Source: Thermoleophilia bacterium
GTDB lineage: Bacteria; Actinomycetota; Thermoleophilia; RBG-16-64-13
DNA length: 64,000 nt
Reading direction: 5' to 3'
NCBI GenBank assembly: GCA_040768135.1
Contig: JAXGNF010000003.1
Span: 11,191 to 75,190, forward strand
The notes under the pieces were generated by a model that worked only from the letters and a program-made list of their open reading frames with translations, ran no database searches and was not told where the DNA came from. How positions within the stretch are numbered: the first letter of the stretch is position 1; each line of letters starts with the position of its first letter. This document shows positions 8,617-45,702 of this stretch, piece after piece. A program made the translations under genes and the position numbers.

Positions 8617-8630
8617 ACTTCCTCCTTCAA

Positions 8631-8972
8631 TCAGTCCTCTTCGGCCGCCGGTGCAGGTGTGGCCACCGGCCCGAGGGGACCAAAAGGCTTTTTGTGCCGA
8701 ACGGGCATGAAACGGAGCACGACGTCGGTGATACCGAGGACTCGGGTCACCTCGTCGAGGGTCTTGGGGGTAGCCTCGAAGTACAAGATGTAATAGACGC
8801 CGTCGAGCGAGTCGTCTATCTCGTACGCGAGACGTTTCTTGCCCCACTCATCGATCTTCACGACGACGCCCCCGTCGCCAGTGATGATCTCTTTGGTGCG
8901 ATCGAGCACCGCGGTCCGCTCTTCATCCGTCGCACTAGTGCGCAGGATAAGAACCAGCTCATAGCTGTTCAG
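8631..8972 (-). CDS. rpsF: 30S ribosomal protein S6; start codon apparently non-canonical (CTG at 8970-8972)
   Basis: C-terminal two-thirds (IDEWGKKRLAYEI...VVLRFMPVR) is S6. The reading frame stays open upstream of the listed GTG and encodes (K)LNSYELVLILRTSATDEERTAV, the conserved S6 N-terminus. An AGGAGG RBS at 8982-8987 is followed 9 nt later by CTG. No ATG/GTG/TTG is present in the expected place. Confidence 0.75.
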   Translation of the reverse strand: MNSYELVLILRTSATDEERTAVLDRTKEIITGDGGVVVKIDEWGKKRLAYEIDDSLDGVYYILYFEATPKTLDEVTRVLGITDVVLRFMPVRHKKPFGPLGPVATPAPAAEED

Positions 8973-9152
8973 TTTGGGTCACCTCCTACGGTCTTTGCGG
9001 CCCCGGCCTCTCTGCCGGAGCAGGGGTGCTGTATGGAATTGTACCCGCACCGCCGGACAGGACTCCCAAAGACCCCTCCGAGTTGTCGCAGTGCGAAGCA
9101 GGGAGTATACACAAGGGGTGGGGGGAGCACCACCAGTGGCCCCCACACACAA

Positions 9153-30066: not shown

Positions 30067-30123
30067 CTTCCGGCCTGGCTACAGGGAACAGTGAGAAGCC
30101 GGCGCCGTGTCAGTACCGCAGTG

Positions 30124-30510
30124 TCAGTCCCCGCCACTCTCTGCTCCCCGGGTAGGCGGGTCCGTCTGGTCGTAGCCATTATCGCCGGACGCGGAAGCAT
30201 CGCCATCCAGCATGCGTTGGATCTCGCCGACCAACTCATCGCCGGGCATGCCGGCGGCCAGAGTGGCCGTCATCACGGAAGGGCCGCCCCGCTGCGCGGC
30301 GCGGAACGCCGCCCGCAGCGCGGCGAACACTTGGTCTTCGTCGCCCGTCAACAGTGTGCTCAGATTGCCGACGCGCACGGCGCACCCTTCGGCGCGGGCC
30401 GCCTGTATGGCGGCCTCGATGGGTTCGCCGATGCCTGCCTGCCGGAGCGGATAGATAGAGAACTGGCAGCCTAGGATCTGAGGACTTAAGTATCCGGATC
30501 TTTCGCTCAT
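30124..30510 (-). CDS. MTH1187/YkoF-family thiamine-binding protein
   Basis: ILGCQFSIYPLRQ...IEAAIQAARAEGCAVRVGNLSTLLTGDEDQVFAALRAAF matches the ~100-aa MTH1187/YkoF pattern (YPLG...T.IEGD.D.V). It is co-localised with the thiamine genes. Confidence 0.55.
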   Translation of the reverse strand: MSERSGYLSPQILGCQFSIYPLRQAGIGEPIEAAIQAARAEGCAVRVGNLSTLLTGDEDQVFAALRAAFRAAQRGGPSVMTATLAAGMPGDELVGEIQRMLDGDASASGDNGYDQTDPPTRGAESGGD

Positions 30511-30533
30511 CGCAACTACCTTTCTTCCGTTGT

Positions 30534-31172
30534 CTACTTGTCTCGGTAGTGGAACAGTAGGAGAGTGCCTTTCCCGTGACTCACGCGGGCTCGGGTGTCT
30601 ACCATCATGTTGCTGACGCCCCGAGTAGACGACTGAAGGAGCGTCTCACCTCTCAAAGGGTAGAGCAGTCCCTCGGTCACCACCTCATCCACCTCGGGAG
30701 TCAGGGCCAGCAGGGAGACGATGTCTCCGGGTGCCCCCGCGACTTCCGCCTCCCCTTTGACCAGGAAGATCTCGTGCAGTTCGTCGACCAGGCGCACTCG
30801 GACACCCTCCAGCCAGGGTGACGTAAGGAGGAGTAGATTCCCGATGAAGTGATCGAAGCGAGGCCCGCCAAGCGCTCCATACACAGTGATTTCGCCCGCG
30901 CCGCGATCCACGGCGAGCCGCATCGCAACCTCGGTATCAGTCTCGTTCTTCGCCGTCGGTAGGAGCAAGACCTCGACTCCCCGATGCTCCAGCCACCGGC
31001 GGGTCGCAGGATCGATCGAGTCCATGTCGCCCACGAGCAGAGCGGGGATAATGCCCATTCCAACCAGCGCCTGGGCCCCCCCGTCGACGGCCACGATCAA
31101 GTCGGCTTCAACAACAGAGGCGGCATCCAACTCGACCACCGGTCTCGAACCCGCTACTACGACAGCACGCAT
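30534..31172 (-). CDS. thiN: thiamine diphosphokinase
   Basis: LIVAVDGGA...VGDMDSI is the TPK catalytic-domain motif (GD.DS). It is the first gene after a TPP riboswitch. Confidence 0.75.
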   Translation of the reverse strand: MRAVVVAGSRPVVELDAASVVEADLIVAVDGGAQALVGMGIIPALLVGDMDSIDPATRRWLEHRGVEVLLLPTAKNETDTEVAMRLAVDRGAGEITVYGALGGPRFDHFIGNLLLLTSPWLEGVRVRLVDELHEIFLVKGEAEVAGAPGDIVSLLALTPEVDEVVTEGLLYPLRGETLLQSSTRGVSNMMVDTRARVSHGKGTLLLFHYRDK

Positions 31173-31244
31173 GCTCCACTCCTAACTCACTGGGGAACAT
31201 GGGGCTGCATTTTGAACGAAGACACCGACACCGTCAGAAGGCGG

Positions 31245-31335
31245 GCGGGCTATCGCAGATCACCGTTACTTCCCTTCGCTGGCATTACCCAGATCAGGTT
31301 CGCAGGGTCTGTGGCCTAGCCACACTCTCAGCTAC
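31245..31335 (-). ncRNA. TPP (thiamine pyrophosphate) riboswitch / THI element
   Basis: The minus-strand sequence contains GAACCUGAUCUGGGUAAUGCCAGCGAAGGGAAG, the conserved TPP-riboswitch core. It is preceded by ...CACAGACCCUGC (CUGAGA-like) and lies in the 5' leader of the thiN-ykoF-thiXYZ-like operon. Boundaries are approximate. Confidence 0.75.
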
Positions 31336-31684
31336 AAGCTCCCCTAGCAAGGCACATTGAATGTGTGCTTAGTATACCATCGACAACGCACGATCGGCTG
31401 GGACACTATTTTGATAAACAGATATCGCACCGCGTTATAGCGCAACGTGATAGAGTGTTATTCAGTGTCACCGGTCGATCGATTTTTGGGAACTAGCGGC
31501 AGTTCTTCCTGAGGAACTCCTGCAGGTTCTTGGGTTTTCGCGAGGCCGGGAGGCCTGCAGAGTCGGGGGGCGGCCGATTCGCCGGCGTGGTGACCACTCG
31601 AGACCGGGATCACTTGGGAATCGAGGGCGGTGGCGGTCAACGACGCGGGCGGGCGCCGCGATTCGTCCGTATGGAGAGGAGCGA

Positions 31685-32298
31685 TCGTGTCGAGGACAGA
31701 GGCGTCCGAGGCGGGAAGTCGGACCGGGGAGGGGCTCACCGAGATACGGTGGCATGCCCGGGGCGGTCAGGGAGCCGTCACGGCGGCAAAGATGGTGGCC
31801 GAACTGGCCCTGGGCCAGGGCAAACACTTCCAAGCATTCCCTGAGTATGGGCCTGAGCGGTCGGGGGCGCCCATCGTGGCGTTCACCCGCGTCAGCGACG
31901 AACCCATCCAGATCTATGCGGGTGTGGAGCGTCCGGGGATCGTGGTGGTCCTTGACTCCTCCCTGCTCAGCGTCATCGATGTGACCAGAGGGGCACCCGA
32001 AGATGCGGTGGTGTTGGTCAACAGTGAGATGGCTCCGGCAGACCTGCGTAAGGAGCACGGGCTCAAAGGGGGCCGCCTCTATACCATCGCCGCGACCCGC
32101 ATAGCCACCGAGACCATCCGCCGACCCATCCCGAACACACCCATGGTGGGAGCCTTGACCCGCATTACGGGGCTATTCCCCATCGAAGACGTGGTCGAGT
32201 TTCTGCGCGTGGACTTCGGCAAGAAGTTCCCGCCAAAAGTGGTCGAGGGCAACATCGCGGCCATCATGCGCGCATATGAGGAGGTGCGGGGCGAATGA
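31685..32298 (+). CDS. porG: pyruvate/2-oxoacid:ferredoxin oxidoreductase gamma subunit
   Basis: GTG at 31685, 6 nt after GGAGAGGAG. EIRWHARGGQGAVTAAKMVA...PEYGPERSGAP is the PorG signature. Confidence 0.85.
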
Positions 32299-32618
32299 GC
32301 GCCGCCAAGAAAACAACCTGGGATATCAGCGACATAGACACGTGGGGGCCCGAGAGGCACGAACTCGGAGCGACGATCCCTGTAGCGGGGAACTCCATGG
32401 AGGTCGAGACCGGCGGCTGGCGCTCGCAGGTACCCGTAATCTCCAGCGAGAAGTGCACAGGCTGCATGCTCTGCTACTTCTACTGTCCCGACGCCTCCAT
32501 CATCGTCGAAGACGGCAAAGCGGTGGGAATCGACCTCGACCACTGCAAAGGCTGCGGTATCTGCGCCAATGAGTGCCCGGCCAAGGCCATCGTCATGAAG
32601 ACCGAAGAGAAGGAGTGA
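32295..32618 (+). CDS. porD: pyruvate:ferredoxin oxidoreductase delta subunit (2x[4Fe-4S] ferredoxin)
   Basis: CTGCMLCYFYCP and CKGCGICANECP. Overlapping ATGA junction with porG. Confidence 0.85.
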   Translation: MSAAKKTTWDISDIDTWGPERHELGATIPVAGNSMEVETGGWRSQVPVISSEKCTGCMLCYFYCPDASIIVEDGKAVGIDLDHCKGCGICANECPAKAIVMKTEEKE

Positions 32619-32622
32619 CGAG

Positions 32623-33825
32623 GTGAGCGGACAGAAGACAACCACGCTCGCCGTCACCGGTAACGAAGCCGCAGCGGAGGCAATGCGCCAGATAGACCCC
32701 GACGTGGTCTGTGCTTACCCTATCACTCCACAGACCGAGGTCGTGCAGATCTATGCACAAATGGTAGCCGACGGCAGGGTGACCTCCGAGTTCGTGACGG
32801 TGGAGTCGGAGCACTCGGCTATGAGCGCCGTGATAGGTGCAGCCGCCGGCGGCGCCCGCACTATGACTGCCACCTCTTCCCAGGGGTTCGCCCTCATGTG
32901 GGAACTTCTCTTTGTGGCTTCGAGTTACCGGCTACCAGTAGTGATGACCACAGTCAACCGGGCTCTTTCGGGTCCCATCAACATCCACTGCGATCACAGC
33001 GACACTATGGGTGGTCGTGATAGCGGCTGGATCCAGCTCTATGGTGAAGACCATCAACAGGCCTATGACAACTGCATCCAGGCCGTGCGCATCGGGGAAC
33101 ATATGGACGTCCGCCTACCCGTCATGCACATGTACGATGGCTACGTCATCAGTGGGGCCATAGGGCCTTTGGTCATGCTCACCGACGAGCAGGTCCATGA
33201 CTTTGTTGGGCCCTTCACACCCATCAACCCCCTACTTGACCCTAAGCGTCCGGTCACAGTAGGCCCATTCGACGGTCTGCACGGTTGGTACTTCGAACAC
33301 AAGGTGGCGCAGAACCGAGCTATGGACCGGGCCCTCAAAGTAATCCAGGACGTGGCCGATGAGTTCGCCGAGTTGAGTGGACGGCATTACGGTCTGCTCG
33401 ACCCTTATCGACTCGAAGACGCCGAGATCGCCATTGTAGTGGTCAACTCCACTGCAGGGACAACCCGCATGGTGGTCGACAAGCTGCGAGCGCGGGGAGT
33501 CAAGGCCGGGATGATCCGCATGCGGGTGTTCCGTCCCTTTCCCTACGCCGCTTACGCCAAAGCGCTCGAGCATGTCAAAGTCGTGGGCGTGCTCGATCGG
33601 GCCGACTCCTTCGGAGCACAAGGCGGACCGCTCTTTCTGGAGATCCGAGCGGCCCTCTACGACAACGACCCGCGGCCCCAGGTGTTGCCGTTTGTCTATG
33701 GATTGGGCGGCCGGGACGTCTTCCCGGACAACATCGAGCAGGCATTCGCAGTGCTGGAACAGGCGGCAGCAGGCAAGAAACGGAGCTCGACCGAGCGGCG
33801 CTATCTCAACCTGCGGGAAGACTGA
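32623..33825 (+). CDS. porA: pyruvate:ferredoxin oxidoreductase alpha subunit
   Basis: N-terminal AVTGNEAAAEAMRQIDPDVVCAYPITPQTE is the PFOR domain I signature. 400 aa. Confidence 0.9.
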   Translation: MSGQKTTTLAVTGNEAAAEAMRQIDPDVVCAYPITPQTEVVQIYAQMVADGRVTSEFVTVESEHSAMSAVIGAAAGGARTMTATSSQGFALMWELLFVASSYRLPVVMTTVNRALSGPINIHCDHSDTMGGRDSGWIQLYGEDHQQAYDNCIQAVRIGEHMDVRLPVMHMYDGYVISGAIGPLVMLTDEQVHDFVGPFTPINPLLDPKRPVTVGPFDGLHGWYFEHKVAQNRAMDRALKVIQDVADEFAELSGRHYGLLDPYRLEDAEIAIVVVNSTAGTTRMVVDKLRARGVKAGMIRMRVFRPFPYAAYAKALEHVKVVGVLDRADSFGAQGGPLFLEIRAALYDNDPRPQVLPFVYGLGGRDVFPDNIEQAFAVLEQAAAGKKRSSTERRYLNLRED

Positions 33826-33834
33826 GGTGGGGGT

Positions 33835-34696
33835 GATGACGAACGGAAACGGAGGCAACGGCAAGAGACCACGGGGGGGTGGCCCGAGAGACGCGCATGT
33901 AGCTCAGCCCAAAGGCTCGGCCCTCTACGAGGTTCTGAAAGGGATCGACTTTGAGCGCAGGCAATTGGTGGGTAAGAATCCCTCCATCGGTCTTTTTGAC
34001 CTTGTCAGAAAAGAGGACGGTAGCTATCGCTGTTACTCATGCACCCTCTGCGAGCGCGTCTGTCCGGTGGACTGTATCGAACTCGAATACTGCCCGGAAT
34101 TCCCCGAGGAACCCTTCGATTTCGACGCCGCTCGGGCGGCCGCTTTGACGACGCTCCCGGGGGAGAGTTGTGGAGCTGCATCAGCGTGTGTGATGGGGGA
34201 AGCGCCCGCTCAGTTCGTCCCCGAGATCGACAAGAAGCTCCTTGACCCTGTGATCGCGGGTATCCGGGCGGGATCGGGCCTGGTGGAGGCCCTCCACGCG
34301 ACTCAGGAGGCGTACGGCTACCTGCCGCGGGTGGCTTTGGAGGATATCGCCGAGGAGATAAGCATTCCTTTCTCGCGCGTCTTTGGCGTGGCCAGCTTCT
34401 ACAGCCAGTTCCGGCTCCGGCCGGTAGGCAAATACGTCATTGATGTCTGCATGGGGACTGCGTGTCACGTGGCGGGCGCGCCGCTTATCGTGGAAGCCTT
34501 CAGCCAGGAACTTGAGATCCCCGTCGGGGGCACGACACCAGACGGCCTCTTCACCCTGCAGACCGTCAACTGCGTGGGTGCCTGTGCCCTCGCCCCGGTA
34601 GTTCGCATCGGCGAGGACGAGACGTTCGGCCGCTTGGGTCCTACAGAGGCCCGGCGCCTGGTGCGCAGGCTTCGCAGGCAGGAGGCGGCGTCATGA
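33835..34696 (+). CDS. NuoE/HydC/StnC-like [2Fe-2S] thioredoxin-like ferredoxin subunit with a Cys-containing N-terminal extension
   Basis: ATG at 33835 after GAGGTGGGGG. The core SRVFGVASFYSQF...VCMGTACHVAGA...VNCVGACALAPV is the NuoE fold. The extra roughly 100-aa N-terminal region carries CYSCTLCERVCPVDC. Confidence 0.8.
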
Positions 34697-36612
34697 ATGC
34701 CGCCGGAGAAGCTCGTGCCGCCGCTATCTATGCAGCCCTCGACGCTGCGGCCGACAAGAACGCTTACCTTTCCGACGACACCAAGACCGAGATCCGCCTC
34801 TGTGCCGGTACGGCCTGCCACGCCTCCGGCCGAGTAGCACTACGCGAGGCGGTGGAGAAGGCCCTCGCTCAACGGGGACTCAGCGAACAGGTGAGGGTCA
34901 TCGAGACAGGCTGCCACGGCTTCTGCCAACAGGGCCCCATCATCGTCATCAGGCCCAAGGGGATCTTCTATCCGCGCCTGAAGCCCCAGGACATTGATGA
35001 GATCATCGAGGCCAGCGTGGTGGGCGACGGCGTGGTCGAACGCCTTCTGTACCGACATCCCCAGACCGACGAACCCCTGGCGCTGGAAGAAGAGATCCCC
35101 TTCTATGCCCTTCAGAAGCGGATTGTCCTCAGCCTCAACGGCAAGATCGATCCTTATTCGATCGATGACTATCTGGCCCACCATGGGTACACGGCGCTCG
35201 CCAAGGTCTTGGCCGAAGCCGATCCGCAGGCCCTCATCGCTGAGATTGAGAAGAGCGGCCTCCGGGGTCGAGGTGGCGCCGGTTTCCCGACGGCGCGCAA
35301 GTGGCGCTCATGCCGGGCCAACCCAGGCGACAAGCATTACATCATCTGCAACGCCGACGAGGGCGATCCCGGAGCCTTCATGGACCGCTCGGTACTCGAA
35401 GGCAACCCCCACAGCGTCATCGAAGGCATGGTCATAGCAGCATACGCTATCGGCGTCGATAACGGTCCCGTCGAAGGCTACGTCTATGTACGACGCGAGT
35501 ACCCATTTGCGGTGGAACGTCTGCGCCGGGCTCTGGATCAGGCTCGGGAGAGAGGCCTGCTGGGCCGGGACATCCTGGGCTCGGGTTTTGATTTCGACAT
35601 CCGCATAAACCAAGGTGCAGGTGCCTTTGTCTGCGGAGAATCCACCGCCCTAACCCTCTCCATCGAGGGACACCGGGGCATGCCCCGGGGTAAGCACATC
35701 CGCACCGTGGCCCGTGGCCTGTGGGGTCAGCCCACCAACCTCAACAACGTGGAGACCTACGCCAGCGTACCCTGGATCATCAACCACGGCGCTGAGGAAT
35801 TCGCCGCCGTGGGCACCGCTACCAGCAAAGGCACCAAGATATTCTCACTCACCGGCAAAGTGATGAATGGTGGACTTATCGAGGTGCCCATGGGTGTCAC
35901 CCTGCGAGAGGTGATCTTCGATATCGGAGGCGGTATGCTGCCGGGCCGCGAGTTCAAAGCGGTCCAGCTGGGCGGTCCGTCAGGAGGCTGCCTCCCGGCC
36001 TCGCTCCTGGACGAACCCATTGACTTCGAGAGCCTGGTCGCCGCCGGCTCCATGATGGGTTCCGGTGGCATGGTGGTAGTGGACGACACTACCTGCATGG
36101 TCGATTTTGCCAAGTTCTTCTTACAGTTCACTGCAGAGGAGAGTTGTGGCAAGTGCGTGCCCTGCCGAGTGGGAACCACCCGTATGCTCGAGATACTCGA
36201 ACGGATATCGGCAGGCTTGGCCTCACTCGAAGAGGTCGAACTGCTAGAACGGTTGGCCGACGATGTGGTCGAAGGGTCGCTTTGTGCCCTTGGAGGCAGC
36301 GCCCCTAACCCGGTCCTCTCCACCCTGCGCTACTTCCGGGATGAAGTCGTGGCTCATGTGACCGAGCGACGTTGTCCGGCCAAGGTCTGCCGTCCGCTCA
36401 TCCGCTATACGATCGACAAAGAGGCGTGCACTGGGTGCCGGGCCTGCATCACAGCCTGCCCGACCGGCGCAGTGAGCGGAGAACGCAAAGAGCCCCATCA
36501 CATCGACCAGAAACTCTGTATCCAGTGCGACGCCTGTCGCCAGGCCTGTCGGTTCGACGCCGTCCGGGTTGAGACCGGGATACCGTCGCTCGTCGAAGGG
36601 AGGCGCAGATGA
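34693..36612 (+). CDS. NuoF/HydB/StnB-like NAD(H)-binding FMN subunit with an N-terminal thioredoxin-like 2Fe-2S domain and a C-terminal 2x[4Fe-4S] ferredoxin
   Basis: N-terminal CAGTACHASG...CHGFCQQGP is a 2Fe-2S site. GRGGAGFPTARKW is the NuoF FMN/NADH site. The SLBB and 4Fe-4S region is ESCGKCVPCR. C-terminal CTGCRACITACP and CIQCDACRQACR. Overlapping start/stop with both neighbours. Confidence 0.85.
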   Translation: MNAAGEARAAAIYAALDAAADKNAYLSDDTKTEIRLCAGTACHASGRVALREAVEKALAQRGLSEQVRVIETGCHGFCQQGPIIVIRPKGIFYPRLKPQDIDEIIEASVVGDGVVERLLYRHPQTDEPLALEEEIPFYALQKRIVLSLNGKIDPYSIDDYLAHHGYTALAKVLAEADPQALIAEIEKSGLRGRGGAGFPTARKWRSCRANPGDKHYIICNADEGDPGAFMDRSVLEGNPHSVIEGMVIAAYAIGVDNGPVEGYVYVRREYPFAVERLRRALDQARERGLLGRDILGSGFDFDIRINQGAGAFVCGESTALTLSIEGHRGMPRGKHIRTVARGLWGQPTNLNNVETYASVPWIINHGAEEFAAVGTATSKGTKIFSLTGKVMNGGLIEVPMGVTLREVIFDIGGGMLPGREFKAVQLGGPSGGCLPASLLDEPIDFESLVAAGSMMGSGGMVVVDDTTCMVDFAKFFLQFTAEESCGKCVPCRVGTTRMLEILERISAGLASLEEVELLERLADDVVEGSLCALGGSAPNPVLSTLRYFRDEVVAHVTERRCPAKVCRPLIRYTIDKEACTGCRACITACPTGAVSGERKEPHHIDQKLCIQCDACRQACRFDAVRVETGIPSLVEGRRR

Positions 36613-39600
36613 GCGCACGGACAGACAAAGAGACCCTGGCCGGTGGCTCTGCCAAAGCCACCCTCGGCAGTTCCTTGGGTGACGCTGCCGACGCCGCATC
36701 CCAAGTCACGCTCACAATAGACGGCAAAGAACTCCGTGCCCAAGCGGGCGAAACGGTCCTTGATGTCGCCCGACGTGCGCGAATCTACATCCCTGCCCTG
36801 TGTCACATCGCCGATACTGCCGCCTGGGGGGCCTGCCGTCTTTGCCTGGTTGAGGTGGACGGAGTGGATAAGCTCCAAGCCGCCTGCACCACCTGGGTGG
36901 CCGAGGGTATGGTGGTACGCACCAATACTCCACGTGTACGGGCCCGCCGTGAGAGCTATCTCAAGATGTACCTGTCCGACCACAACGCCTACTGCGAAGC
37001 TCCGTGCTCACATGCCTGCCCGACCCACATAGACATCCCCGCGTATATGGCAGCCTTGGCCGCCGGCGACCCGGACGAGGCCCTCTCCATCGTACTGGCC
37101 GAACTCCCTTTTCCGGGCGTCCTTGGACGGATATGCCCGCGCTACTGTGAGCCGGTCTGTCGCCGTAGCGAAGTAGACGACGCCGTCGCCATCTGCGACC
37201 TACACCGCGCGCTGGGCGACCACGCCGGGCGCGGCCAGGTGCGTCTCCGCCCCGGCCGGCCCAGTGGCCGGCGTGTAGCCGTAATCGGCGCCGGCCCTGC
37301 AGGGTTGTCGGCCGCCTGGTTCCTGGCCGAGAAGGGACACCAGGTGACCATATACGACGAGCACGAAGAGCCCGGGGGCTTACTCCGATACGGTATCCCT
37401 GAGTTCAAACTCCCTCAGCGTGTGCTCGAAGACGAACTGCGGCCGCTCTGGGAGGCGGGGGTCCGCTTCTCCGGGGGGTCGAAGATACCCGCGGTAGGCG
37501 GCGCCGAGAGGCTGCTGGACGCCGGCTTCGACGCAGTCATAGTCGGCACCGGAGGCGGACCGGCGCCCAGAGCCCGTCGAACCGCTAAGGGAGAAAAGGT
37601 GTTGAGCGCCTCCAAGCTGCTTGGCCAGGTGCGCTCGGGCGACGCTGTCTCGCTGTCCCCCAAGGTGATAGTGCTCGGCGACGATGTGGTGGCCCTCGAC
37701 GCGGCCCGGACTGCTCTACGCCTTGGAGCCACAGAAGTAACCGTGATCACGCCCCGCCAGCCCGACGATCTCCCCGCGGGCGACCGCGAACTGACGGCCG
37801 CCTTTGACGAAGGGGTCAGGTTCGAGTTCGGCGCGGCCCACCCCAAGGCCTCCGCGTTTGCCGGCGACGACATCACAGTCATCGTCGAAAAAGAGCGCCC
37901 TACGGCGAAGCCCATAGATGCCCACCCGTCGACGGGGCGCACGGGCGCCCGGGGCGTGTTTGCCGCAGGCGACGCGATCGGTGGTGTTCAGTCGGTGATC
38001 CACGCGGTCGCGAGTGGCAAGCGCACCGCTCTCGCGGTAGACGCTTGGCTGCGGGATGTGGATCTTGACCAGTTGGAGCAAGACCTGGCCGAGTACGAGG
38101 CTCTACCGTATCTGGAGCAGCTCGCGCAGTCAGAGCGGATCGACACTCTGGGCCAACGTCTGGCCGAGCGGACGCCGGTGTGGCTCAAAATGGGAGCGAC
38201 TGCGGAGCCCGCGGGCCGGGCAGCTATGCCCAAGACGGCTAAGGCCAAGCGCCTCTCCGATCTCAACGTCGAAGTAGAGAAAGGCCTTAGCCTGGCGGTG
38301 GCCCAAGAGGAGGCCAAACGCTGTCTACAGTGCGTATGTCCGGCTCTGGGAACCTGCTCACTACAGAAGCTCGGGGTCGAGTACGGTATCACTGCCAACG
38401 AATTGGCGGTTAAGGGTGGCCGGGTACGGGTCGTAGGATCGCAGCATGAGCACCCCTTCATCAGGCGCGACATGGAGCGCTGTATCGCCTGCGGCCGCTG
38501 TGTCCGAGTCTGCCGCGACGTAGCGGGCCCAGCCTGCTACGACTTCACCGGCCGGGGCTTCACCATGAACGTCGACACTCCTTACAGCGAAGCCCTGCAG
38601 CTTGCCGACTGCATCAGTTGCGGGCGTTGTGTGAGCACCTGCCCGACCGGGGCCTTGACTTTCAACGAGCGGAGTCTTACCTCCTTCCGAGTCGACGAAA
38701 GCCGGTGCATCCTGTGCAGGGAGTGCGTGGAGGTCTGCCCGGTGGACGCCCTGGAAGAGACCAATCACTTCGAAGAGGCCCGCCGGAGGTGGCTTGAACT
38801 GGTCGGCAAAGGCAGTCAACTCGCCGGCGGCCACCGCATGTGTGCAGGTTGTGGGGCGCCGATAGTCGTACGCCAAGTGCTCATGGGGACGGACCGCCCG
38901 ACGGTGGTGGGAGCGGCTACGGGATGCCTCGAGGTAAGTACGACTATCTATCCGTACACTTCTTGGAAGGGTGGTTTTATCCACACAGCCTTCGAGAACG
39001 CTGCGGCCACCGTCAGCGGAGTCGAGACCGCCTACCGAGCTTTGCGAAAGAAGGGCACTATTGACGAGGATGTCAGATTCATCGCCTTCGGCGGTGACGG
39101 AGGCACGTACGACATCGGATTGCAGTCACTCTCCGGGGCCATGGAACGAGGCCACCGGATGCTCTACGTCTGCTACGACAACGGCGCTTACATGAACACC
39201 GGTTTCCAGCGCTCGGGCGCGACGCCGATCTCGGCTTGGACCACCACCAGCCCGGTCGGTAGAGAGTCGCCCGGCAAGTTGCAACACCGCAAGAACCTCA
39301 CCGAGTTGATGATCGCCCACGGCATACCGTACGTGGCCCAGGCCTCCCCCCACGATCCCCGCGACCTGGTACGCAAAGCCGCCAAAGCTTTGTCGATCGA
39401 TGGTCCGACGTTCTTGAACGTCCTCTCCCCCTGCCCGCGCGGATGGCGTTCGGACGGCGCCGAGAGCATCGACCTAGCCCGCGAAGCGGTGAACACCTGC
39501 TACTGGCCGCTCTTCGAATATGAAGATGGTGAGTACCGTCTGACCTACCGGCCGCATCACAAGCTGCCTCTGATACCGTGGCTGAAACGCCAAGGCCGCT

Positions 39601-39755
39601 TCGCTCATCTGTTCCAGCCAGGATATGAGGAAGCCCTCGCCAGTATCGAAGCTTGGGTAGATGAGGAGTGGGAAAAGCTGCTGCGCAAATGCGGTGAGCC
39701 CAGCGAGGCCGATTGGCAGGAGCATCTGCAAGAACACGGCTGCCTACTGCGTTGA
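36609..39755 (+). CDS. multidomain fusion protein: NuoG-type [2Fe-2S] ferredoxin + GltD/NfnB/StnA-like FAD-NAD(P)H oxidoreductase + polyferredoxin + C-terminal pyruvate:ferredoxin oxidoreductase beta (TPP-binding PorB) domain
   Basis: Domain order along the 1048 aa. (i) [32 protein letters not shown]...CRLCLVEV is a NuoG/FdhA-like 2Fe-2S domain. (ii) [14 protein letters not shown]...[14 protein letters not shown] followed by [29 protein letters not shown]...GVFAAGD is GltD-like. (iii) Four Cys clusters: [47 protein letters not shown]. (iv) [10 protein letters not shown]...[11 protein letters not shown]...[12 protein letters not shown] is the PorB TPP-binding motif GDG-x(24-27)-N. Confidence 0.8.
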   Translation: [1048 protein letters not shown]

Positions 39756-39822
39756 AGACCCCTATGGAGCCATGACCTACCTCATATCAGCAACGATGTA
39801 GCGTCACGAACGATGCGGCGCC

Positions 39823-41070
39823 ATGCCTGACATAGAGATACGGGCCCCTCGTGAGGAGGAGTTCCCGGCCATCTTGCGGACAAGCAGCGTAGCCTTCGGT
39901 GAAGAGGCAACTGCCGAAGACGCTGAGGTCTACCGAACATCGTTCCCCTTCGACCGGGCTCTTTGCGCATATGAGGGCGGAGACATGGTGGCGACGTCTG
40001 CCGCTTTGCCTATGGAACTAACCTTACCCGGACAGCGCGCACTGCCTGCAGCAGGGATGACCTGGATCGCCACCCTGCCCACCCACCGGCGACGTGGCCT
40101 CCTGCGACGGCTCATGACAAGCCACTTCGTCCAGATGGTCGAACGTGGAGAGCCACTCTCGCTCCTGCTTGCCTCTGAGGGGAGCATCTACTCACGCTTC
40201 GGCTACGGACCCGCCACCAACATCTTGAGTTTCAGTGTCGAACGCCCTTACGCAGTGTTCTCTTGTCCGGTCACCAACAGGGGCCGCCTGAGCCTCCTGA
40301 GTGACGAGGAGGCGGCCGCGGAGCTGCCGCCCCTCTACGATGATCTCAGGCTCCTCCAACCGGGAATGGTCCGCCGTCCCATCTTCTGGTGGCCGCATTA
40401 TCTCCACGATCCGGTCGGCGCGAGAGAGGGCGCCACCAAGATGTACCATGTGAAACATGAGACGGTCCCCGGGGTGGCCGACGGTTATGCCAGCTATCGG
40501 ATTAAGGAGGCTTGGTCCGGCGCGGCCACACCAGCCGGTGAGGTGCAGGTCGTAGAGGTGATCGCCGCAAACCCCGACGTCTACAAAGTACTATGGGACT
40601 ACCTGCTCAACACCGACCTATCTCAGACTACCTCGTGCTGGAGAGGAAGAGTTGACGAGCCGCTCCGCTGGCTTCTGGCCGACCCGCGCCGTTTTGAGAC
40701 AAAGGCTATGGCCGATGACCTCTATCTGCGCCTTCATGACGTGCCCCGCGCTCTGTCCGCCAGGGGTTATCGGGCCTCAGGCGAACTGGTGCTCGCGGTG
40801 ACCGAGGAGTTCTTCCCTCACCCCAGCGAAACCCGCTACCTCCTCCGGGCCGACCCGGCAGCTCTGCCGGGCGCAGAATGCAGCCACACGCAACGAGAAC
40901 CCGACTTAGCGATCTCAATCGATTATCTCGCCGCTGCTTATCTGGGAGGAGTGTCGTTTAGGACGCTGGCGACAGCAGGAAGGGCACGAGAGTTGACCCC
41001 GGGAGCCATCGAACAGGCCGACAAGATGTTCTCCACCGAGGTAGCGCCTTTCTGCTCCACGATGTTCTGA
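39823..41070 (+). CDS. Eis-like GNAT family N-acetyltransferase (GNAT + SCP2-like C-terminal domain)
   Basis: At 415 aa, with acetyl-CoA-binding region HRRRGLLRRLMTSHF and architecture similar to enhanced-intracellular-survival-type acetyltransferases. Confidence 0.65.
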   Translation: MPDIEIRAPREEEFPAILRTSSVAFGEEATAEDAEVYRTSFPFDRALCAYEGGDMVATSAALPMELTLPGQRALPAAGMTWIATLPTHRRRGLLRRLMTSHFVQMVERGEPLSLLLASEGSIYSRFGYGPATNILSFSVERPYAVFSCPVTNRGRLSLLSDEEAAAELPPLYDDLRLLQPGMVRRPIFWWPHYLHDPVGAREGATKMYHVKHETVPGVADGYASYRIKEAWSGAATPAGEVQVVEVIAANPDVYKVLWDYLLNTDLSQTTSCWRGRVDEPLRWLLADPRRFETKAMADDLYLRLHDVPRALSARGYRASGELVLAVTEEFFPHPSETRYLLRADPAALPGAECSHTQREPDLAISIDYLAAAYLGGVSFRTLATAGRARELTPGAIEQADKMFSTEVAPFCSTMF

Positions 41071-41094
41071 CGCACGTCCTCACAAGGAGGGTTC

Positions 41095-41697
41095 ATGCAA
41101 GACCAAGTCGGTCCGAGCCCCAGCCACGCAACGTTCAGACCTGAGCGCGCTCATCGGCTGAACGACGTGCGCCGTTTGGAGACTCAGGTTGCAGAGGCCG
41201 ATCTGGCCCGCCTGCTCGCCCTCAAAGGCAACGAAAACCTGCTGGACCTCGGCAGCGGGACCGGTTTCTACACTGATCGTATGGCCCGTCTCACCACGGG
41301 TGTTGTGTACGCGGTCGACTTCCAACCCGAGATGCACGCGCACCACAGAACTCGTGGACTACCGGTCAATGTACAACAGTTGTCCGCCGACCTGACCGAC
41401 CTTGTCGGTCTTATCATCATACCGGGAAGCGTTGATGTGGCCTGCACTATCACTACCTGGCACGAGATAGGAGGCCGTCTTGACCTTCCGGGCCTTCTCA
41501 GGGTCCTCAGCCCCGGTGGACGACTCGTCGTCATCGATTGGAGAAAACACCCGGAGTCTTGGGACCACGGACCTCCAGGAGATATCCGCTTCACCAAAGA
41601 GGAAGTGGCCTCCTCTCTTCAACGCTACTTCGCCCACGTCGATGCCGAGGACTTGGGTCGCTTCATGTTCGCCGTGGTGGCAAGACGGATCGCATAG
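41095..41697 (+). CDS. class I SAM-dependent methyltransferase
   Basis: LLDLGSGTGFYT is SAM-binding motif I (DxGxGxG), and VLSPGGRLVVIDW is motif III. Confidence 0.7.
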   Translation: MQDQVGPSPSHATFRPERAHRLNDVRRLETQVAEADLARLLALKGNENLLDLGSGTGFYTDRMARLTTGVVYAVDFQPEMHAHHRTRGLPVNVQQLSADLTDLVGLIIIPGSVDVACTITTWHEIGGRLDLPGLLRVLSPGGRLVVIDWRKHPESWDHGPPGDIRFTKEEVASSLQRYFAHVDAEDLGRFMFAVVARRIA

Positions 41698-41777
41698 ATC
41701 TCCGGGTATCGATCGCTCCCACAGCTAGACTAGAGATTGATTGTGGAGCGTCGCCCAGACCGGGTCGGATCCGTAGA

Positions 41778-42206
41778 CTACTCTTCATCGGCCGGATCAG
41801 CCGCCCGCTCCCGTTTCAGACGACCTCGCCGGCGCTTCTCTTCCAAACGTCTCACTTTGACCGCCTCGGGAATCTGCACAGGAACGCGCTCCGGTACCTC
41901 GGTCAGGGCCGTGCGCACTAGTTCGGCTAGTCTCCGAGTCGCAGCCTCACGGTTGGCCAACTGAGTGCGATGGCGTTCGGAGACCACTCGCAGGACCCCC
42001 TGTTTGTTGATACGTCCTGCAAGACGACGGCGGAGCGACTCTTTCTGTTCCACAGTCAACGAAGGTGAGCCGTTCACATCGAACAGCAAAGTGACGCGGG
42101 TATTAAGCTTGTTGACGTTCTGGCCGCCCGGCCCACCGCTGCGAGAGGTGGTGAATGTCAGTTCGTCGTCCGGGATCTCAAGATCATCAAGCACCCGCAC
42201 CATCAT
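41778..42206 (-). CDS. arfB: alternative ribosome-rescue factor ArfB (peptidyl-tRNA hydrolase, class-I release-factor domain)
   Basis: SRSGGPGGQNVNK (GGQ motif) and a basic C-terminal tail (KVRRLEEKRRRGRLKRER) are typical of ArfB/YaeJ. The start is taken at the MMVRVLDD Met. Confidence 0.75.
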   Translation of the reverse strand: MMVRVLDDLEIPDDELTFTTSRSGGPGGQNVNKLNTRVTLLFDVNGSPSLTVEQKESLRRRLAGRINKQGVLRVVSERHRTQLANREAATRRLAELVRTALTEVPERVPVQIPEAVKVRRLEEKRRRGRLKRERAADPADEE

Positions 42207-42316
42207 CACTCCTTTCGGCCGCAACAACCCCCTATGCCGCACTGGGCCCGGCTATGGACCGCAACCTGCCTCGGCCGACTTCCCGGAGCACGCCGACAAA
42301 CCGATCCGGCCGTTCG

Positions 42317-43003
42317 TCAGCGGCCGCCTCGGCCTTCTTTTTGTTCCCCCAGCGAAGCGATGAGCGTCCGATCGAGCTCTACTATCGAGTCCAGCACCAC
42401 GTCCGCCGAAGCAAGCACTTCCGCCGAGGGTGGGAAGGCGGCGTTGGGGATGGCGACGACCGCCAGCCCGGCCGAATGAGCCGCCTGGATCCCACTGGTG
42501 GAATCCTCTACGGCGACCGCCCGCTCCGGCTCAGTCGCCAGACGGGCACAGGCCTCAAGGTAGACGTGGGGCTCGGGCTTGCCCGCCGACACTTCGTCAG
42601 ACGACACCAACGCATCAAAGCACGCCTGCAACCCAGCCAGTTCTAAGACGTATTCAATGATTTCCAGCGGTGAGGATGAAGCCACTCCTAACCTATAATA
42701 ACGGGCCAGACCAATGACCACGTCCACGGCTTTTGGAATCAGCGGCAGATGCTGAGCATATCGCCTACGCAGTCCACTTATGATGCCGGCATAGATCTCC
42801 TGATTAGACAGATCGACCCCGTTATTCTCTCGCATGGAAGCCGCCCATTGCATGGAATTGGCCCCCATCACCAGCGGCTGATCTCTTTCTGTGTCCCAAT
42901 ACCCTCCGTGGCAAGTGGCGAACTCGTAACGCACGGTGTTCCACACATTTTCGGTGTCGATGATGACTCCATCGAGATCAAAAACAATCGAATCGATGCT
43001 CAC
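42317..43003 (-). CDS. HAD-IA family hydrolase (beta-phosphoglucomutase-like phosphatase)
   Basis: IVFDLDGVIIDTE is HAD motif I (DxDGV), with downstream K and DD motifs. Confidence 0.75.
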   Translation of the reverse strand: MSIDSIVFDLDGVIIDTENVWNTVRYEFATCHGGYWDTERDQPLVMGANSMQWAASMRENNGVDLSNQEIYAGIISGLRRRYAQHLPLIPKAVDVVIGLARYYRLGVASSSPLEIIEYVLELAGLQACFDALVSSDEVSAGKPEPHVYLEACARLATEPERAVAVEDSTSGIQAAHSAGLAVVAIPNAAFPPSAEVLASADVVLDSIVELDRTLIASLGEQKEGRGGR

Positions 43004-45702
43004 GGCAGGGTGACCTGCTTGGCGCCGAGCCCCGCATAATCTGAAGGGTTGCAGGTCAGCACAATTATCTGAAGTCCCCGCTCCGCACCGAGGTCGAGCA
43101 TCCGCTGCAGCGTCTGTACGCGTTCGGGATCAGAGTATGCGAAGGCATCGTCAAACACCACGGGGAGCGAGCCGTCGTGACCGGCAGCCAGCAACTCCGC
43201 AATCGCGAGTCGAACGGCAGCCGCGACCTGCTCGCGGGTCCCGCCGCTCAACCGGGCAAACGAAGTGGTGCCTCCGTCGTCGGAACGAGCAAGTTCGATG
43301 CCCTTGAAGCGTCGGTTCTCGAAGGACACCACGGCACGGGCATCCGCTCCGAACAGACAGCGTAGATACGCGCTTATCTTGTCGGCCAACGGCTGTGAGA
43401 AGCGATCTGCCAAGGCCCTCTGCTCGGCGACGAAGAGGTCATCGACAAGGACAATGGCGCGGGCCTTTCGCTCCACCAACCGCAGATTGGTCTCGGCCGC
43501 CTGCAACCGGGCGTCGGCCTCAGCGAGTAGCGCCTGGGGATCCTCAGCGCCACTCAAGCGGAGGAGGGCCTGGTTCGCGGCACGCCGGTTAGACGCATCC
43601 AGCTTCTGCTCAGCGATCCGTTCCAGGGCACGGGCCAACCGTTCGTGATCCGCCGCCAATACATCGGGCTGCAAAGCTTCCAACGATGCCCGAGTCGTCC
43701 CCAGTTCGTCTGCTAGTCGCTTCGCATCCTCCCGGGCTTCTCTCAGCGTCGCTGCACGCACTTCGTCCGCCCCGTGATTCCCGATCAGCAGTTCCAACTG
43801 GTCGGTGCACTTGGTCAACTGCTGCTTGTCGGCCTCTATCAGGATCCCGGCCGCGGTGAGCTCCTTCTCCTTTTCGACGACCAGCACCCGGAGCGCTTCC
43901 AGCGCCGCTTTGGCCGCCCCCTCATCGGATTCGACAACCTGCAGGCCCTCCTGTTCGTGCCGGAGCCATTCCCGCGCATCGGCAATCGTCTGCGGCGATG
44001 CCGCACCGTCGATATGTTGCGCGCGTCTCTGGACATCGGCCACAGCCGCAGCAAGCTCCTCTGCTGCCACCGCGCGTTCGTCGTCCAGCCCCGAAGACCC
44101 AGCGGGCCACTCCGCCAGACGATCCACCAGTGAGCGCTCTTTGCTCAGAAGGCCGGCTCTGACTTTCGCCATCTCGAGGACCTCGGCCACCGATCCCAGA
44201 CCGTACCCGTCCAGCGTGCGCCTCAACTTATCACCCAGTGTACGAACTCTCTCCCGTGCCTGGACTAAGCCGTCACCGCCACCTGGATAGATGCGAAGCA
44301 GTGTCGTTCCCACCACCACCTCGGTAGGATCGGAGACTGTATGGCGCCCACCACCGGCGAGGCTAACCGGCCCTACCTGAACCGCGGCATCGCTACGGAC
44401 GACCTCCACCTCGGTAGCCATGGCCTTCAGAGCCGATTCGGCTTGAGCTGCCTTACCCTCGAGGTCCCGTAAACCGTCAAGAGCCTGTTCATCGAGCGGC
44501 ACCAACCCCGCCAGCTCCGTGCGGAGGCCGGCTAGTTCCTCTTCAAGCCGTCGTACGCGCTCTATGTACTCGTCGAGCTTGTCACAACGAGCCCGCTTCT
44601 CAAAGAGAGCCACATATGCAGCGGCCAATTCCTTCCTGTTCCAGGCTTCTCGAATGACCGCCATTGCCCCTTCGTATGCGTGTTCTGCCTCTGCCTTCTC
44701 TTTCTTCACGGCCAGCAATTCGGCTTCGAGGAGTGCTCGGGCTTCTTCTCGTGGTCTGAGCGACTTCTTCAGGTCGCCGGCCAAGTCCCGTAGCTCAGAT
44801 ATGCTTGTTTCGACGGCTTCTAGATCTGCCAGTCTCTGGGCGGCAATATCGGAGTCGGCTGCTTGTCGCTCCTCACGACGCCGCAACTCATCGACTTCGG
44901 TCATTCCAATCTCGACAGACCGACGCTGCTCAGTCAGGCCTTCCGCCTCACGGGTGAGCCGCTCGATCGTATTCGAAGCCTCTTCGAATCCCAGGGCCGC
45001 TTGACGTAACCTGTCGACCCGGTCGGCAGCCGTCGCACGCTCCGCCGCAGCCTCGGCGTATTCGGTCTGCGCCTTCTCGAGATCGGAGCCTTTCTTGGGC
45101 CTGCCGGTGCTCACGAAAATCAGGCTCCGGTTGCGCGAGAAACGAGCGGCCACCCGCCCGTCCGACTCGGACTGCATGGCCACGGCTCCCCCAGAGTCCT
45201 GCAGTCTTTGCAGGAGGTCTTCCTGCTGGGCGCCCACATATCCACACGGGTCGTTCAGGCTGTTGCCCTGCCATACCCAGAGATGCGACCACTGTTCGAA
45301 GACCCGCTCGTCGGCTCCCCTGCCGCCCTCGATGGTAGGCACCCCAAGTAATTCAGCAATCCGCTGCTGAGCGTCTTCGCCGAGCCAAGTGGACCCGCCC
45401 ACTTGAGTCAGACGAGTAGTGCCGTTCTGACCACTGAAACGCTTCGCGACCTCGTACTGCGCGCCCCGGGCCTCGAACCTCACCTCCACCTCGGGATGTC
45501 CCGCAAAACGAGTAGACCGCATGCGATGATGAGCCTCCCCCGTCACAGTGGCCTTGAGAAACAGCCCTCTGTGGACGGCCTCGATGAGAGTGCTCTTGCC
45601 GCTCTCGTTGGGACCGCCCACCAATGTACGCGCCGGGTCGAACTCCACCGTGACGTCCTGGTGGATGCGATAGCTGATAACCCGAGCAGCGAGCAGCCTC
45701 AT
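43000..45702 (-). CDS. SbcC/Rad50-like AAA ATPase (DNA double-strand break repair)
   Basis: N-terminal Walker A LVGGPNESGKSTLIEA, a long coiled-coil (E/A/R/L-rich) middle, and a C-terminal signature/Walker B (LSGGTREQ..., LPVVFDDAF). Overlaps the SbcD-like gene. Confidence 0.8.
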   Translation of the reverse strand: MRLLAARVISYRIHQDVTVEFDPARTLVGGPNESGKSTLIEAVHRGLFLKATVTGEAHHRMRSTRFAGHPEVEVRFEARGAQYEVAKRFSGQNGTTRLTQVGGSTWLGEDAQQRIAELLGVPTIEGGRGADERVFEQWSHLWVWQGNSLNDPCGYVGAQQEDLLQRLQDSGGAVAMQSESDGRVAARFSRNRSLIFVSTGRPKKGSDLEKAQTEYAEAAAERATAADRVDRLRQAALGFEEASNTIERLTREAEGLTEQRRSVEIGMTEVDELRRREERQAADSDIAAQRLADLEAVETSISELRDLAGDLKKSLRPREEARALLEAELLAVKKEKAEAEHAYEGAMAVIREAWNRKELAAAYVALFEKRARCDKLDEYIERVRRLEEELAGLRTELAGLVPLDEQALDGLRDLEGKAAQAESALKAMATEVEVVRSDAAVQVGPVSLAGGGRHTVSDPTEVVVGTTLLRIYPGGGDGLVQARERVRTLGDKLRRTLDGYGLGSVAEVLEMAKVRAGLLSKERSLVDRLAEWPAGSSGLDDERAVAAEELAAAVADVQRRAQHIDGAASPQTIADAREWLRHEQEGLQVVESDEGAAKAALEALRVLVVEKEKELTAAGILIEADKQQLTKCTDQLELLIGNHGADEVRAATLREAREDAKRLADELGTTRASLEALQPDVLAADHERLARALERIAEQKLDASNRRAANQALLRLSGAEDPQALLAEADARLQAAETNLRLVERKARAIVLVDDLFVAEQRALADRFSQPLADKISAYLRCLFGADARAVVSFENRRFKGIELARSDDGGTTSFARLSGGTREQVAAAVRLAIAELLAAGHDGSLPVVFDDAFAYSDPERVQTLQRMLDLGAERGLQIIVLTCNPSDYAGLGAKQVTLP

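Follow-up and report, generated by a model that had tools for sequence, protein, structure and literature searches.

The stretch of DNA considered here, 64,000 nucleotides from a Thermoleophilia bacterium (the window; contig JAXGNF010000003.1), carries at 36609-39755 a gene whose product joins BfuA, an iron-sulfur (Fe-S) and flavin subunit of Nfn-type bifurcating enzymes, to PorB, the beta subunit of pyruvate:ferredoxin oxidoreductase (POR), in a single polypeptide of 1048 amino acids (aa). We refer to this gene and its product as the fusion. Its architecture is confirmed as a real, conserved variant of a known enzyme family; its function we infer from homology. No description of a BfuA-PorB fusion with a GltD module was found in a full-text literature collection of 8 million papers.

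The fusion gene and its operon

The fusion is the last gene of a tightly packed and partly overlapping operon, porC-porD-porA-bfuC-bfuB-fusion, at 31687-39755. The members, and one motif of BfuC that is taken up below, are listed here; MAG stands for metagenome-assembled genome, FMN for flavin mononucleotide and FAD for flavin adenine dinucleotide.

31687..32298, + strand: porC, gamma subunit of 2-oxoacid:ferredoxin oxidoreductase (OFOR); Pfam POR, E 5e-39; NCBIfam PorC_KorC, 187 bits (cut-off 81); GTG start, as in a near-identical NCBI MAG
32295..32618, + strand: porD, delta subunit, 107 aa, with two CxxCxxCxxxCP motifs and an overlap with the stop of porC; the identical gene in MAG GCA_040771365.1 (locus L079) matches Fer4 families
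32623..33825, + strand: porA, alpha subunit; Pfam POR_N, E 4e-69, and PFOR_II, E 5e-30; NCBIfam PorA_Arch, 480 bits (cut-off 550)
33836..34696, + strand: bfuC, NuoE/NfnC-like, 286 aa; Pfam 2Fe-2S_thioredx, E 2e-42; family-specific Cys-rich N-terminal extension of ~125 aa, conserved in homologous loci
34001..34090, + strand: NuoI-like first half-ferredoxin motif, CYSCTLCERVCPVDC, in the BfuC N-terminal extension; positions 35-63 of 121 of NCBIfam NuoI TIGR01971
34693..36612, + strand: bfuB, NuoF-like, 639 aa; thioredoxin-like 4-Cys N-terminus, FMN/NADH domain, NADH_4Fe-4S and C-terminal 2x[4Fe-4S]
36609..39755, + strand: fusion gene, NfnA-type BfuA joined to PorB; 1048 aa, ATG start, uninterrupted open reading frame (ORF)

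The fusion ATG shares the four letters ATGA with the TGA of the upstream gene and is preceded by a GGGAGG ribosome-binding site. When 185,579 species-representative genomes were scanned, Actinomycetota MAGs (Thermoleophilia, "Actinomycetes" and Gaiellales) were the only ones with full-length copies; they come from Danish soils, from bog and palsa at Stordalen, and from permafrost. The genes porC, porD, porA and bfuB lie upstream of the fusion in identical order in about 25 Actinomycetota loci, and bfuC is present in the correct frame in 13 of the 18 loci examined (the other five automatic ORF picks were in the wrong frame and were left out of the count). Ordinary genomes in the same scan carry porC-porD-porA-porB, so that the three bfu reading frames lie between porA and the PorB part. 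The window has no free-standing porB and no second porA or porB. The porC, porD and porA genes and the NuoE- and NuoF-like genes of the bifurcating core, all directly upstream, lay outside the initial annotation of this stretch, which was made from the letters alone and had described the fusion.

Within the fusion, the domains follow one another as below (cluster labels A1 to A7 are those of NfnA; TPP is thiamine pyrophosphate).

36699..36929, + strand: [2Fe-2S] domain, equivalent of A1; residues 31-107, with C65, C76, C79 and C93, all invariant; Pfam Fer2_4, E 8e-22
36981..37226, + strand: GltD/NfnL two-[4Fe-4S] domain; residues 125-206, with C129, C133, C137, C176, C180, C184, C196 and H199; Pfam Fer4_20 and alignment to NfnA
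37260..38063, + strand: FAD fold whose NAD(P)H subdomain is eroded; residues 218-485; GAGPAGL intact, GDDVVA in place of GxGxxA, no YRR, deletion of ~40 aa
38313..38660, + strand: all-Cys CxxCxC(x5)C cluster and NuoG/HydA-type 2x[4Fe-4S] domain; residues 569-684; Pfam Fer4_Nqo3, colinear with NfnA to residue 683
38661..38780, + strand: third CxxCxxCxxxCP motif (C700/703/706/710), NuoI-like second half; NCBIfam NuoI positions 69-115 of 121, 59.6 bits, top family
38811..39683, + strand: PorB domain; TPP site G828-G829-D830-G831...N858, proximal-cluster Cys C745, C748, C773 and C942; NCBIfam PorB, 358 bits
39684..39752, + strand: conserved C-terminal tail beyond the PorB fold, CGEPSEA.WQ..LQ..GCLLR; residues 1026-1048, from the alignment

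Pfam places Fer4_20, the two-cluster domain of GltD/DPD, at residues 128-206 (E 2e-16), Pyr_redox_2 at 222-411 (E 3e-14, with G227-A-G229-P-A-G232; NAD_binding_8 matches too), Fer4_Nqo3 at 616-684, a Fer4 dicluster at 665-716, and TPP_enzyme_C at 771-938 (E 8e-18), the GDGG... motif spanning 828-865. Among NCBIfam models, PRK12814, which has the 2Fe-2S + GltD architecture, matches residues 31-415, and PorB (NF008819) matches residues 735-1025 with the best score of all 2-oxoacid oxidoreductase beta models (358 bits, under its cut-off of 405). The E-values of the named motifs are so low that chance matches are excluded. Every motif named in the initial annotation is present, and these results bear out a single intact polypeptide with its domains in the order proposed, a two-cluster GltD/DPD domain followed by a GxGxxG FAD fold, and a C-terminal region that scores as a POR beta subunit with its TPP motifs. 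The four cluster motifs comprise one CxxCxC(x5)C (C572/575/577/583) and three CxxCxxCxxxC(P) (C625.., C668.. and C700..).

The PorB part is 60-65% identical to ordinary PorB genes in many phyla and matches the POR beta subunit of Methanosarcina acetivorans (9bt4_C) with 277 bits and, by Foldseek, 48% identity. In alignments of 30 and of 107 family members, G828-G831 and N858 are invariant, as are C745, C748, C773 and C942, which by homology would be the four ligands of the TPP-proximal [4Fe-4S] cluster. The Cys at 1028, in the C-terminal tail, is kept in at least 90% of the 107 members, and there is also a near-terminal Cys. An AlphaFold2 (AF2) model of the whole fusion, built from the 30-sequence alignment, has a mean predicted local distance difference test score (pLDDT) of 63.8 and a predicted template modelling score of 0.49, with pLDDT 85-95 in the FAD/GltD region; it served only to confirm the GltD/NfnA fold by Foldseek, not to measure distances between clusters.

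Among 5.8 billion proteins searched, more than 100 clusters match the fusion with 60-80% identity over 95-100% of its length (1006-1085 aa). Some of the full-length homologues sit on contigs of 1-3.5 Mb, and the names of carrier contigs are typical of several assemblers (k141_, NODE_ and contig_ styles). Clustering at 50% reduces the family to one representative (P0108) plus fragments, so that it is tight and restricted to its lineage. All cluster-ligand Cys are invariant in both alignments. The junction segment, ETNHFE.AR..W.EL...GS, is conserved across homologues, and the GC content at third codon positions (GC3) is uniform across it (0.71-0.77). Relative to the window sequence, the NuoG-type clusters (87% mean identity) and PorB (84%) are the most conserved parts, and the NAD(P)H subdomain (40%) is the least. 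Databases give family members only generic names ("FAD-dependent oxidoreductase," "pyruvate ferredoxin oxidoreductase beta subunit," "formate dehydrogenase major subunit"). The Actinomycetota that carry the gene (Thermoleophilia, Gaiellales and relatives) are uncultured and widespread in soil, peat and permafrost, so the enzyme may bear on how such abundant organisms handle pyruvate and redox balance under oxygen limitation.

Kinship with bifurcating enzymes

The 2Fe-2S + GltD + polyferredoxin part of the fusion is nothing new in itself: Nfn-type bifurcating enzymes are known to have it as their BfuA subunit (PMC9304861, PMC11829005). NfnA has three parts, namely an N-terminal [2Fe-2S] domain (A1), an NfnL-like domain that holds FAD and the clusters A6 and A7, and a domain resembling Fdh/NuoG, in which A2-A5 are found and the pterin site is empty (PMC11829005). 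By sequence and by fold, the closest solved relatives of fusion residues 31-685 are NfnA (9bov_A and 9n5u_A) and StnA (8oh5_C). A BLASTP alignment to an NfnA-like protein of 1177 aa (P0131) is colinear over residues 33-683 and ends right after the second CxxCxxCxxxCP motif; beyond that point P0131 continues with Molybdop_Fe4S4 and Molybdopterin domains, whereas the fusion has the third ferredoxin motif and PorB. Pfam finds no Molybdopterin or Molybdop_Fe4S4 match in the fusion. In the sequence, the third motif stands where NfnA has its A5 cluster motif, and it aligns to the Molybdop_Fe4S4 motif region of StnA. The earlier proposal that POR beta has replaced a pterin domain is thus right as to the replacement itself, since colinearity ends at 683 and PorB follows; the proper reference, however, is NfnA and not NuoG/FdhA. 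The rarity claimed for such swaps does not hold, as exchange of the third module is a known theme, indeed a hallmark, of the Bfu family.

The two neighbouring genes of the core are of the bifurcating BfuB/BfuC type. In BfuB, Pfam identifies Complex1_51K (E 4e-42), NADH_4Fe-4S (B1; E 1e-31), 2Fe-2S_thioredx at residues 30-107 and Fer4 at 572-627. In phmmer comparisons it scores 779-690 bits against all solved bifurcating BfuB/HydB/NfnB chains (top 7t2r_B, 779) versus 414 against the non-bifurcating FdsB, and its alignment spans residues 33-624 with HydB versus 54-551 with FdsB. It has both of the extra Fe-S domains (the thioredoxin-like 4-Cys domain at the N-terminus and the 2x[4Fe-4S] domain at the C-terminus) that non-bifurcating NuoF/FdsB lack. 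The closest solved relatives of BfuC are NfnC 9n5u_C and 9bov_C and chain 8oh5_A, and HydC is among its best PDB matches. The sequence features of the Bfu family are thus present: BfuB, BfuC, and a BfuA with A1 and NuoG/HydA-type clusters.

Two members of the Bfu family invite direct comparison. Nfn-Bfu is already characterised, and Por-Bfu has only been predicted (PMC9304861). With NfnABC/StnABC (Caldicellulosiruptor saccharolyticus 9BOV/9BP5, Sporomusa ovata 8OH5 and Thermococcus sibiricus 9N5U) the window operon shares the three-gene core of NuoE-like, NuoF-like and BfuA proteins, and BfuA has in both cases a [2Fe-2S] domain, an NfnL/GltD FAD module inserted between A1 and the NuoG-like clusters, and CxxCxC..C + 2x[4Fe-4S]. 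NfnA (9BOV, 1178 aa) and StnA (8OH5, 1172 aa) both end in a pterin-less Fdh/NuoG-like domain with A5. In the fusion, by contrast, a NuoI-like motif and PorB/TPP stand in place of that domain, and GGGNTA, YRR and the A7 Lys of NfnA are not kept; the operon further differs from NfnABC in the extra Cys-rich N-terminus of BfuC and in including porC, porD and porA.

Por-Bfu was predicted in 2022 (Schut et al.), for example in Dehalococcoides mccartyi, as an enzyme in which pyruvate oxidation or synthesis is coupled to NAD(H) and ferredoxin (PMC9304861). It would have seven separate subunits (A-G), including a small Type-2 BfuA without A3/A5, and occurs mainly in Chloroflexi and syntrophic Proteobacteria; the same authors raised the question of why low-potential pyruvate oxidation should be coupled to bifurcation at all (PMC9304861). 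Por-Bfu is still termed hypothetical (PMC12318220). As in the window, por and bfuABC genes share one operon; in the window, however, BfuA is of the Nfn type, has the CxxCxC..C cluster as well as the GltD insert, forms one chain with PorB, and belongs to an actinomycetote. The text of PMC9304861 has neither the word "fused" nor the term Actinobacteria. Sequence features therefore set the fusion apart both from Nfn-Bfu (NADPH motifs, Fdh-like domain and Lys ligand) and from Por-Bfu (separate subunits and a small BfuA).

Simpler fusions of the same two partners exist. In a Caldilineae MAG (L035, 986-2500; 504 aa) and in locus L083 (3826-5304; P0129, 492 aa), a small BfuA (2Fe-2S and two 4Fe-4S motifs) is joined to PorB. 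As in the window, PorB is at the C-terminus of BfuA and the order is porA-bfuC-bfuB-fusion; unlike in the window, there is no GltD insert and no third motif, and BfuC, at 151 aa, lacks the extension. Because one of these comes from Caldilineae, BfuA-PorB fusion is not confined to Actinomycetota. Set beside four-subunit POR such as that of Methanosarcina acetivorans (9BT4), porC-porD-porA come first, as in ordinary porCDAB operons, and, unlike there, bfuC, bfuB and ~735 residues of BfuA intervene between porA and the PorB part.

Three sets of candidates for an unfused counterpart were rejected. The 798-aa P0119, which looked like an unfused NfnA'-plus-porB relative, lies on a frameshifted contig in which bfuB is split as well. 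The 670-aa P0081 (~100% identity) is an internal-start call resulting from indels in L079, the locus of the 99.2%-identical MAG GCA_040771365.1. Short Thermoleophilia forms with Fer4 + PorB (L026-L033) have no neighbouring porA and lie next to NfnSL-like genes, which makes them another system. In L026, for example, a 491-aa Fer4 + PorB-like protein (7839-9314) is followed by DUF3786, NfnS-like and NfnL/GltD-like genes, and MAG MFD02979.bin.3.261 has two short copies (L030 and L031) besides a full-length fusion (L024).

A proposed pyruvate-linked complex and its alternatives

On balance, the fusion is probably the central subunit of a six-polypeptide, "Por-Bfu"-type complex (PorC, PorD, PorA, BfuC, BfuB and BfuA-PorB) that would couple the interconversion of pyruvate and acetyl-CoA (CoA, coenzyme A) to NAD(H) and ferredoxin. 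That POR and the BfuABC core form one complex follows from the gene content, since PorA cannot do without a beta subunit and the operon offers no PorB other than the one joined to BfuA; the covalent link removes the doubt that attends adjacent por and bfu genes as to whether they make one enzyme. It also makes the fusion a stoichiometrically defined target for expression and cryo-electron microscopy.

Electrons may travel as follows. Pyruvate and CoA would be converted to acetyl-CoA and CO2 at the TPP site, and the electrons would pass to the PorB [4Fe-4S] cluster and, possibly by way of PorD, to a NuoI-like cluster pair. From there they would run through A5-A4-A2 to A1 and on to the B1-FMN-C1 site of BfuB/BfuC, where they would be split, to NAD+ at the FMN and to ferredoxin at the C-terminal 2x[4Fe-4S] of BfuB. 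The reverse direction, as a pyruvate synthase, may also be possible. The electron path of NfnABC is FAD-A7-A6-A3-A2-A1-B1, with A4/A5 described as a "dead-end evolutionary remnant" (PMC11829005); the fusion would supply a functional context for this A4/A5 side branch, which the NfnABC structures leave unexplained. The GltD-like FAD module would itself lie on a side branch, and its NAD(P)H subdomain looks impaired in the window protein.

Several points weigh against this proposal. Bifurcation is deduced solely from the similarity of BfuB and BfuC to bifurcating proteins. The scores of PorA (480 vs 550 bits) and PorB (358 vs 405 bits) are both under the NCBIfam equivalog cut-offs, so the identity of the substrate is uncertain. 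The retention of a separate porD would fit a conventional exit of electrons to free ferredoxin. The AF2 model has pLDDT <50 over residues 597-751, which puts inter-domain geometry beyond it, and every carrier is a MAG. Finally, the flavin module is not simply decaying, as the GxGxxG of the FAD site is kept in 106 of 107 family members and the GxGxx[AG] of the second Rossmann motif in 83 of them (about 78%).

The NuoI-like cluster pair invoked above would be divided between two proteins. BfuC residues 56-85 correspond to positions 35-63 of the NuoI profile, NuoI models being the top families there and the motif being conserved in homologous loci; residues ~676-722 of the fusion correspond to positions 69-115, again with NuoI as the top NCBIfam family. 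When the two halves are concatenated artificially, they give one colinear NuoI match (35-115 of 121; 78 bits, E 4e-22, under the 113-bit cut-off). A NuoI proper has both CxxCxxCxxxCP motifs on one polypeptide of ~160-180 aa; here the first-half match is on the BfuC N-terminus and the second-half match on the fusion.

A relative embedded in a complex-I operon shows the same division. The closest non-fused relative of fusion residues 29-724, P0124 (816 aa; 42% identity, third motif included), sits in an operon nuoA-B-C-D-H-E'-F-[P0124]-J-K-L-M-N that lacks nuoI. The NuoF of that operon is 69% identical to BfuB of the window and its NuoE 48% identical to BfuC, including the Cys-rich N-terminal extension of ~125 aa. 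P0124, which belongs to a "Nuo-Bfu"-type cluster, ends after the third motif and has nuoA-B-C-D-H and nuoJ-K-L-M-N, not por genes, on its two sides. This operon is that of loci L081 (2466-13432) and L082, from JGI metagenomes 3300035696 and 3300033755; P0124 is its G' (2Fe-2S + GltD + Fe-S), its NuoF is of the bifurcating type, and NuoI-like halves appear N-terminally in E' and C-terminally in G'. Because the simple BfuA-PorB fusion (492-504 aa; no GltD insert, third motif or BfuC extension) lacks both half-motifs, each of the three lineages seen has either both of them or neither.

With moderate weight, these observations suggest that a NuoI-like connector with two clusters is assembled from the two halves where BfuC meets BfuA. 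Alternatively, the third motif of the fusion may pair with the second, as Pfam Fer4_7 (668-714) and the NuoI model NF004541 match there in one stretch. Taken together, the fusion, its complex-I-embedded relative and the small fusion point to one Fe-S/flavin module that has been reused with different partners, among them a quinone module, a pterin-type domain and a TPP enzyme. More tentatively, and possible rather than likely, the NADH-dehydrogenase module of a complex-I-like bifurcating ancestor may have been placed on POR instead of on the quinone module, through a split NuoI-like connector, with A2-A4-A5 as the input line from TPP and with pyruvate and NAD(P)H as alternative donors.

Returning to the six-polypeptide bifurcating complex, the rival that survives best, which we nevertheless consider unlikely, is a non-bifurcating pyruvate:NAD(P)+ oxidoreductase, in which the wire takes both electrons from TPP to the FMN of BfuB and/or the FAD of the GltD module and no free ferredoxin takes part, much as in PadEFGHI or the pyruvate:NADP+ oxidoreductase of Euglena. 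PadEFGHI is a five-subunit, NADH-dependent phenylglyoxylate dehydrogenase that consists of an OFOR and a GltD-like subunit, its beta subunit having an N-terminal ferredoxin extension. The combination of a GltD-like flavoprotein with an OFOR beta subunit does resemble PadH/PadI, and NCBIfam PadI matches residues 705-1024 of the fusion, PadG matches PorA and PadE matches PorC. To our knowledge, moreover, a low-potential ferredoxin economy is not obvious in soil Actinomycetota, to which many carriers belong. All three Pad models are, however, far under their cut-offs (PadI 232 vs 700, PadG 314 vs 700, PadE 126 vs 300 bits), and identity as a Pad-type phenylglyoxylate dehydrogenase was rejected on that basis; PadEFGHI also has, as far as we know, no NuoE/NuoF core, and its flavoprotein is not fused to the beta subunit. 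A pyruvate E0' of about -500 mV makes direct reduction of NAD(P)+ possible (PMC9304861 Table 1). Against this rival stand the thioredoxin-like N-terminal and C-terminal 2x[4Fe-4S] domains of BfuB, the roughly twofold higher scores of BfuB to bifurcating than to non-bifurcating homologues, and the erosion of the NAD(P)H subdomain of the GltD module in the window protein.

That erosion bears equally on a four-substrate enzyme, in which the FAD of the GltD module would be a working NAD(P)H site. Such an enzyme would combine an NfnABC-type transhydrogenase with POR, with NADPH and pyruvate as alternative low- or mid-potential donors to a single bifurcating core, or pyruvate would reduce NADP+ through the intramolecular wire. 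It can claim the conservation of both glycine motifs given above, the presence of GVFAAGD in most family members, the invariant Cys of both GltD clusters and the confident AF2 fold of the region. On the NAD(P)H side the picture is different. The second Rossmann motif reads GDDVVA in the window, compared with GGGNTA in NfnA and a family consensus of GDGxTA, and none of the 107 members has the YRR 2'-phosphate motif of NfnA/GltD (the window has ITPRQ). The spacer that follows the second motif is bimodal, with ~41 residues in the window and ~81 in about half of the members, compared with 74 in NfnA, and GxGxx[AG] is kept in 29 of 44 short-spacer members versus 47 of 53 long-spacer members. The core of the NAD(P)H subdomain is less conserved in the short-spacer group too, the other domains not, and no other part of the protein is as poorly conserved as this subdomain (40-56% identity). 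The A7 Lys ligand (Lys-170 in Csac NfnA), mutation of which impairs StnABC activity (PMC11829005), aligns to His199, which is nearly invariant in the family; Cys196 is invariant. We regard the four-substrate enzyme as quite improbable.

From the alignments we conclude that the window protein has no Nfn-type NADPH site and that the FAD and the clusters are what the GltD module has been kept for. A vestigial or electron-storing side branch is a likelier role for this module than a working NADPH site. The continuous TPP-to-flavin wire proposed in the initial annotation is therefore doubtful as a working route, since the NAD(P)H subdomain is degenerate. Most likely the main wire leads by way of the N-terminal 2Fe-2S cluster to the NuoF-like FMN, with the GltD flavin at the end of a branch, as in solved NfnABC. 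On the 3.56-Mb contig CAVZIK010000006.1 (L006) are two paralogous full-length fusions (P0078 and P0080), 65-66% identical to the window protein, in which the FAD-side GD motif is altered (SVFEV.. and SVFAV..).

The remaining possibility, an assembly artefact or pseudogene, arising either through a sequencing or assembly error that merged a gltD-like bfuA with porB or through decay of the gene, is effectively refuted: the fusion is indeed split into 188-aa and 670-aa pieces, and bfuB into four, in the 99.2%-identical GCA_040771365.1, and another relative (L080) is fragmented as well, but the splits in the former stem from about 25 scattered indels of 1-3 base pairs, many at short base runs and limited to that assembly, the window frame matches the more than 100 independent full-length clusters and loci from several assemblers residue by residue, and the junction is conserved and GC3 uniform over the gene. 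The caution of the initial annotation that a chimeric assembly be excluded and the same fusion sought in related genomes is thereby answered, by full-length clusters from independent Actinomycetota MAGs. In L079 (JAXGHH010000003.1, equivalent to window 29731-46000), where the indels cluster at 35586-37725 and look like assembly consensus error, the annotation is misleading.

Neighbourhood of the operon

A promoter scan of the operon found no sigma-70-like site, and terminator-like sites in the operon scan were not above shuffled expectation. The flanks are housekeeping genes (UPF0182, Lon, RtcB, PASTA kinase, SbcCD-like and IMPDH); with such neighbours and a uniform composition, a horizontal-transfer or mobile-element context was rejected.

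Upstream, Rfam RF00059 identifies a TPP riboswitch at 31254-31355 on the - strand (68.7 bits, E 2e-11), between the por-bfu operon and a divergent thiamine-salvage cluster that comprises thiamine pyrophosphokinase (30534-31172), YkoF (30124-30510), an ABC permease and an NMT1/THI5-like binding protein (28260-29273). The operon of a TPP-dependent enzyme thus stands back to back with genes for TPP supply. Directly 3' of the fusion, at 39823-41070 on the + strand, is an Eis-like GNAT acetyltransferase gene (Acetyltransf_9/17 + SCP2_2), and an Eis-like gene occupies the equivalent position in the related loci L003, L014, L019, L020, L022 and L034.

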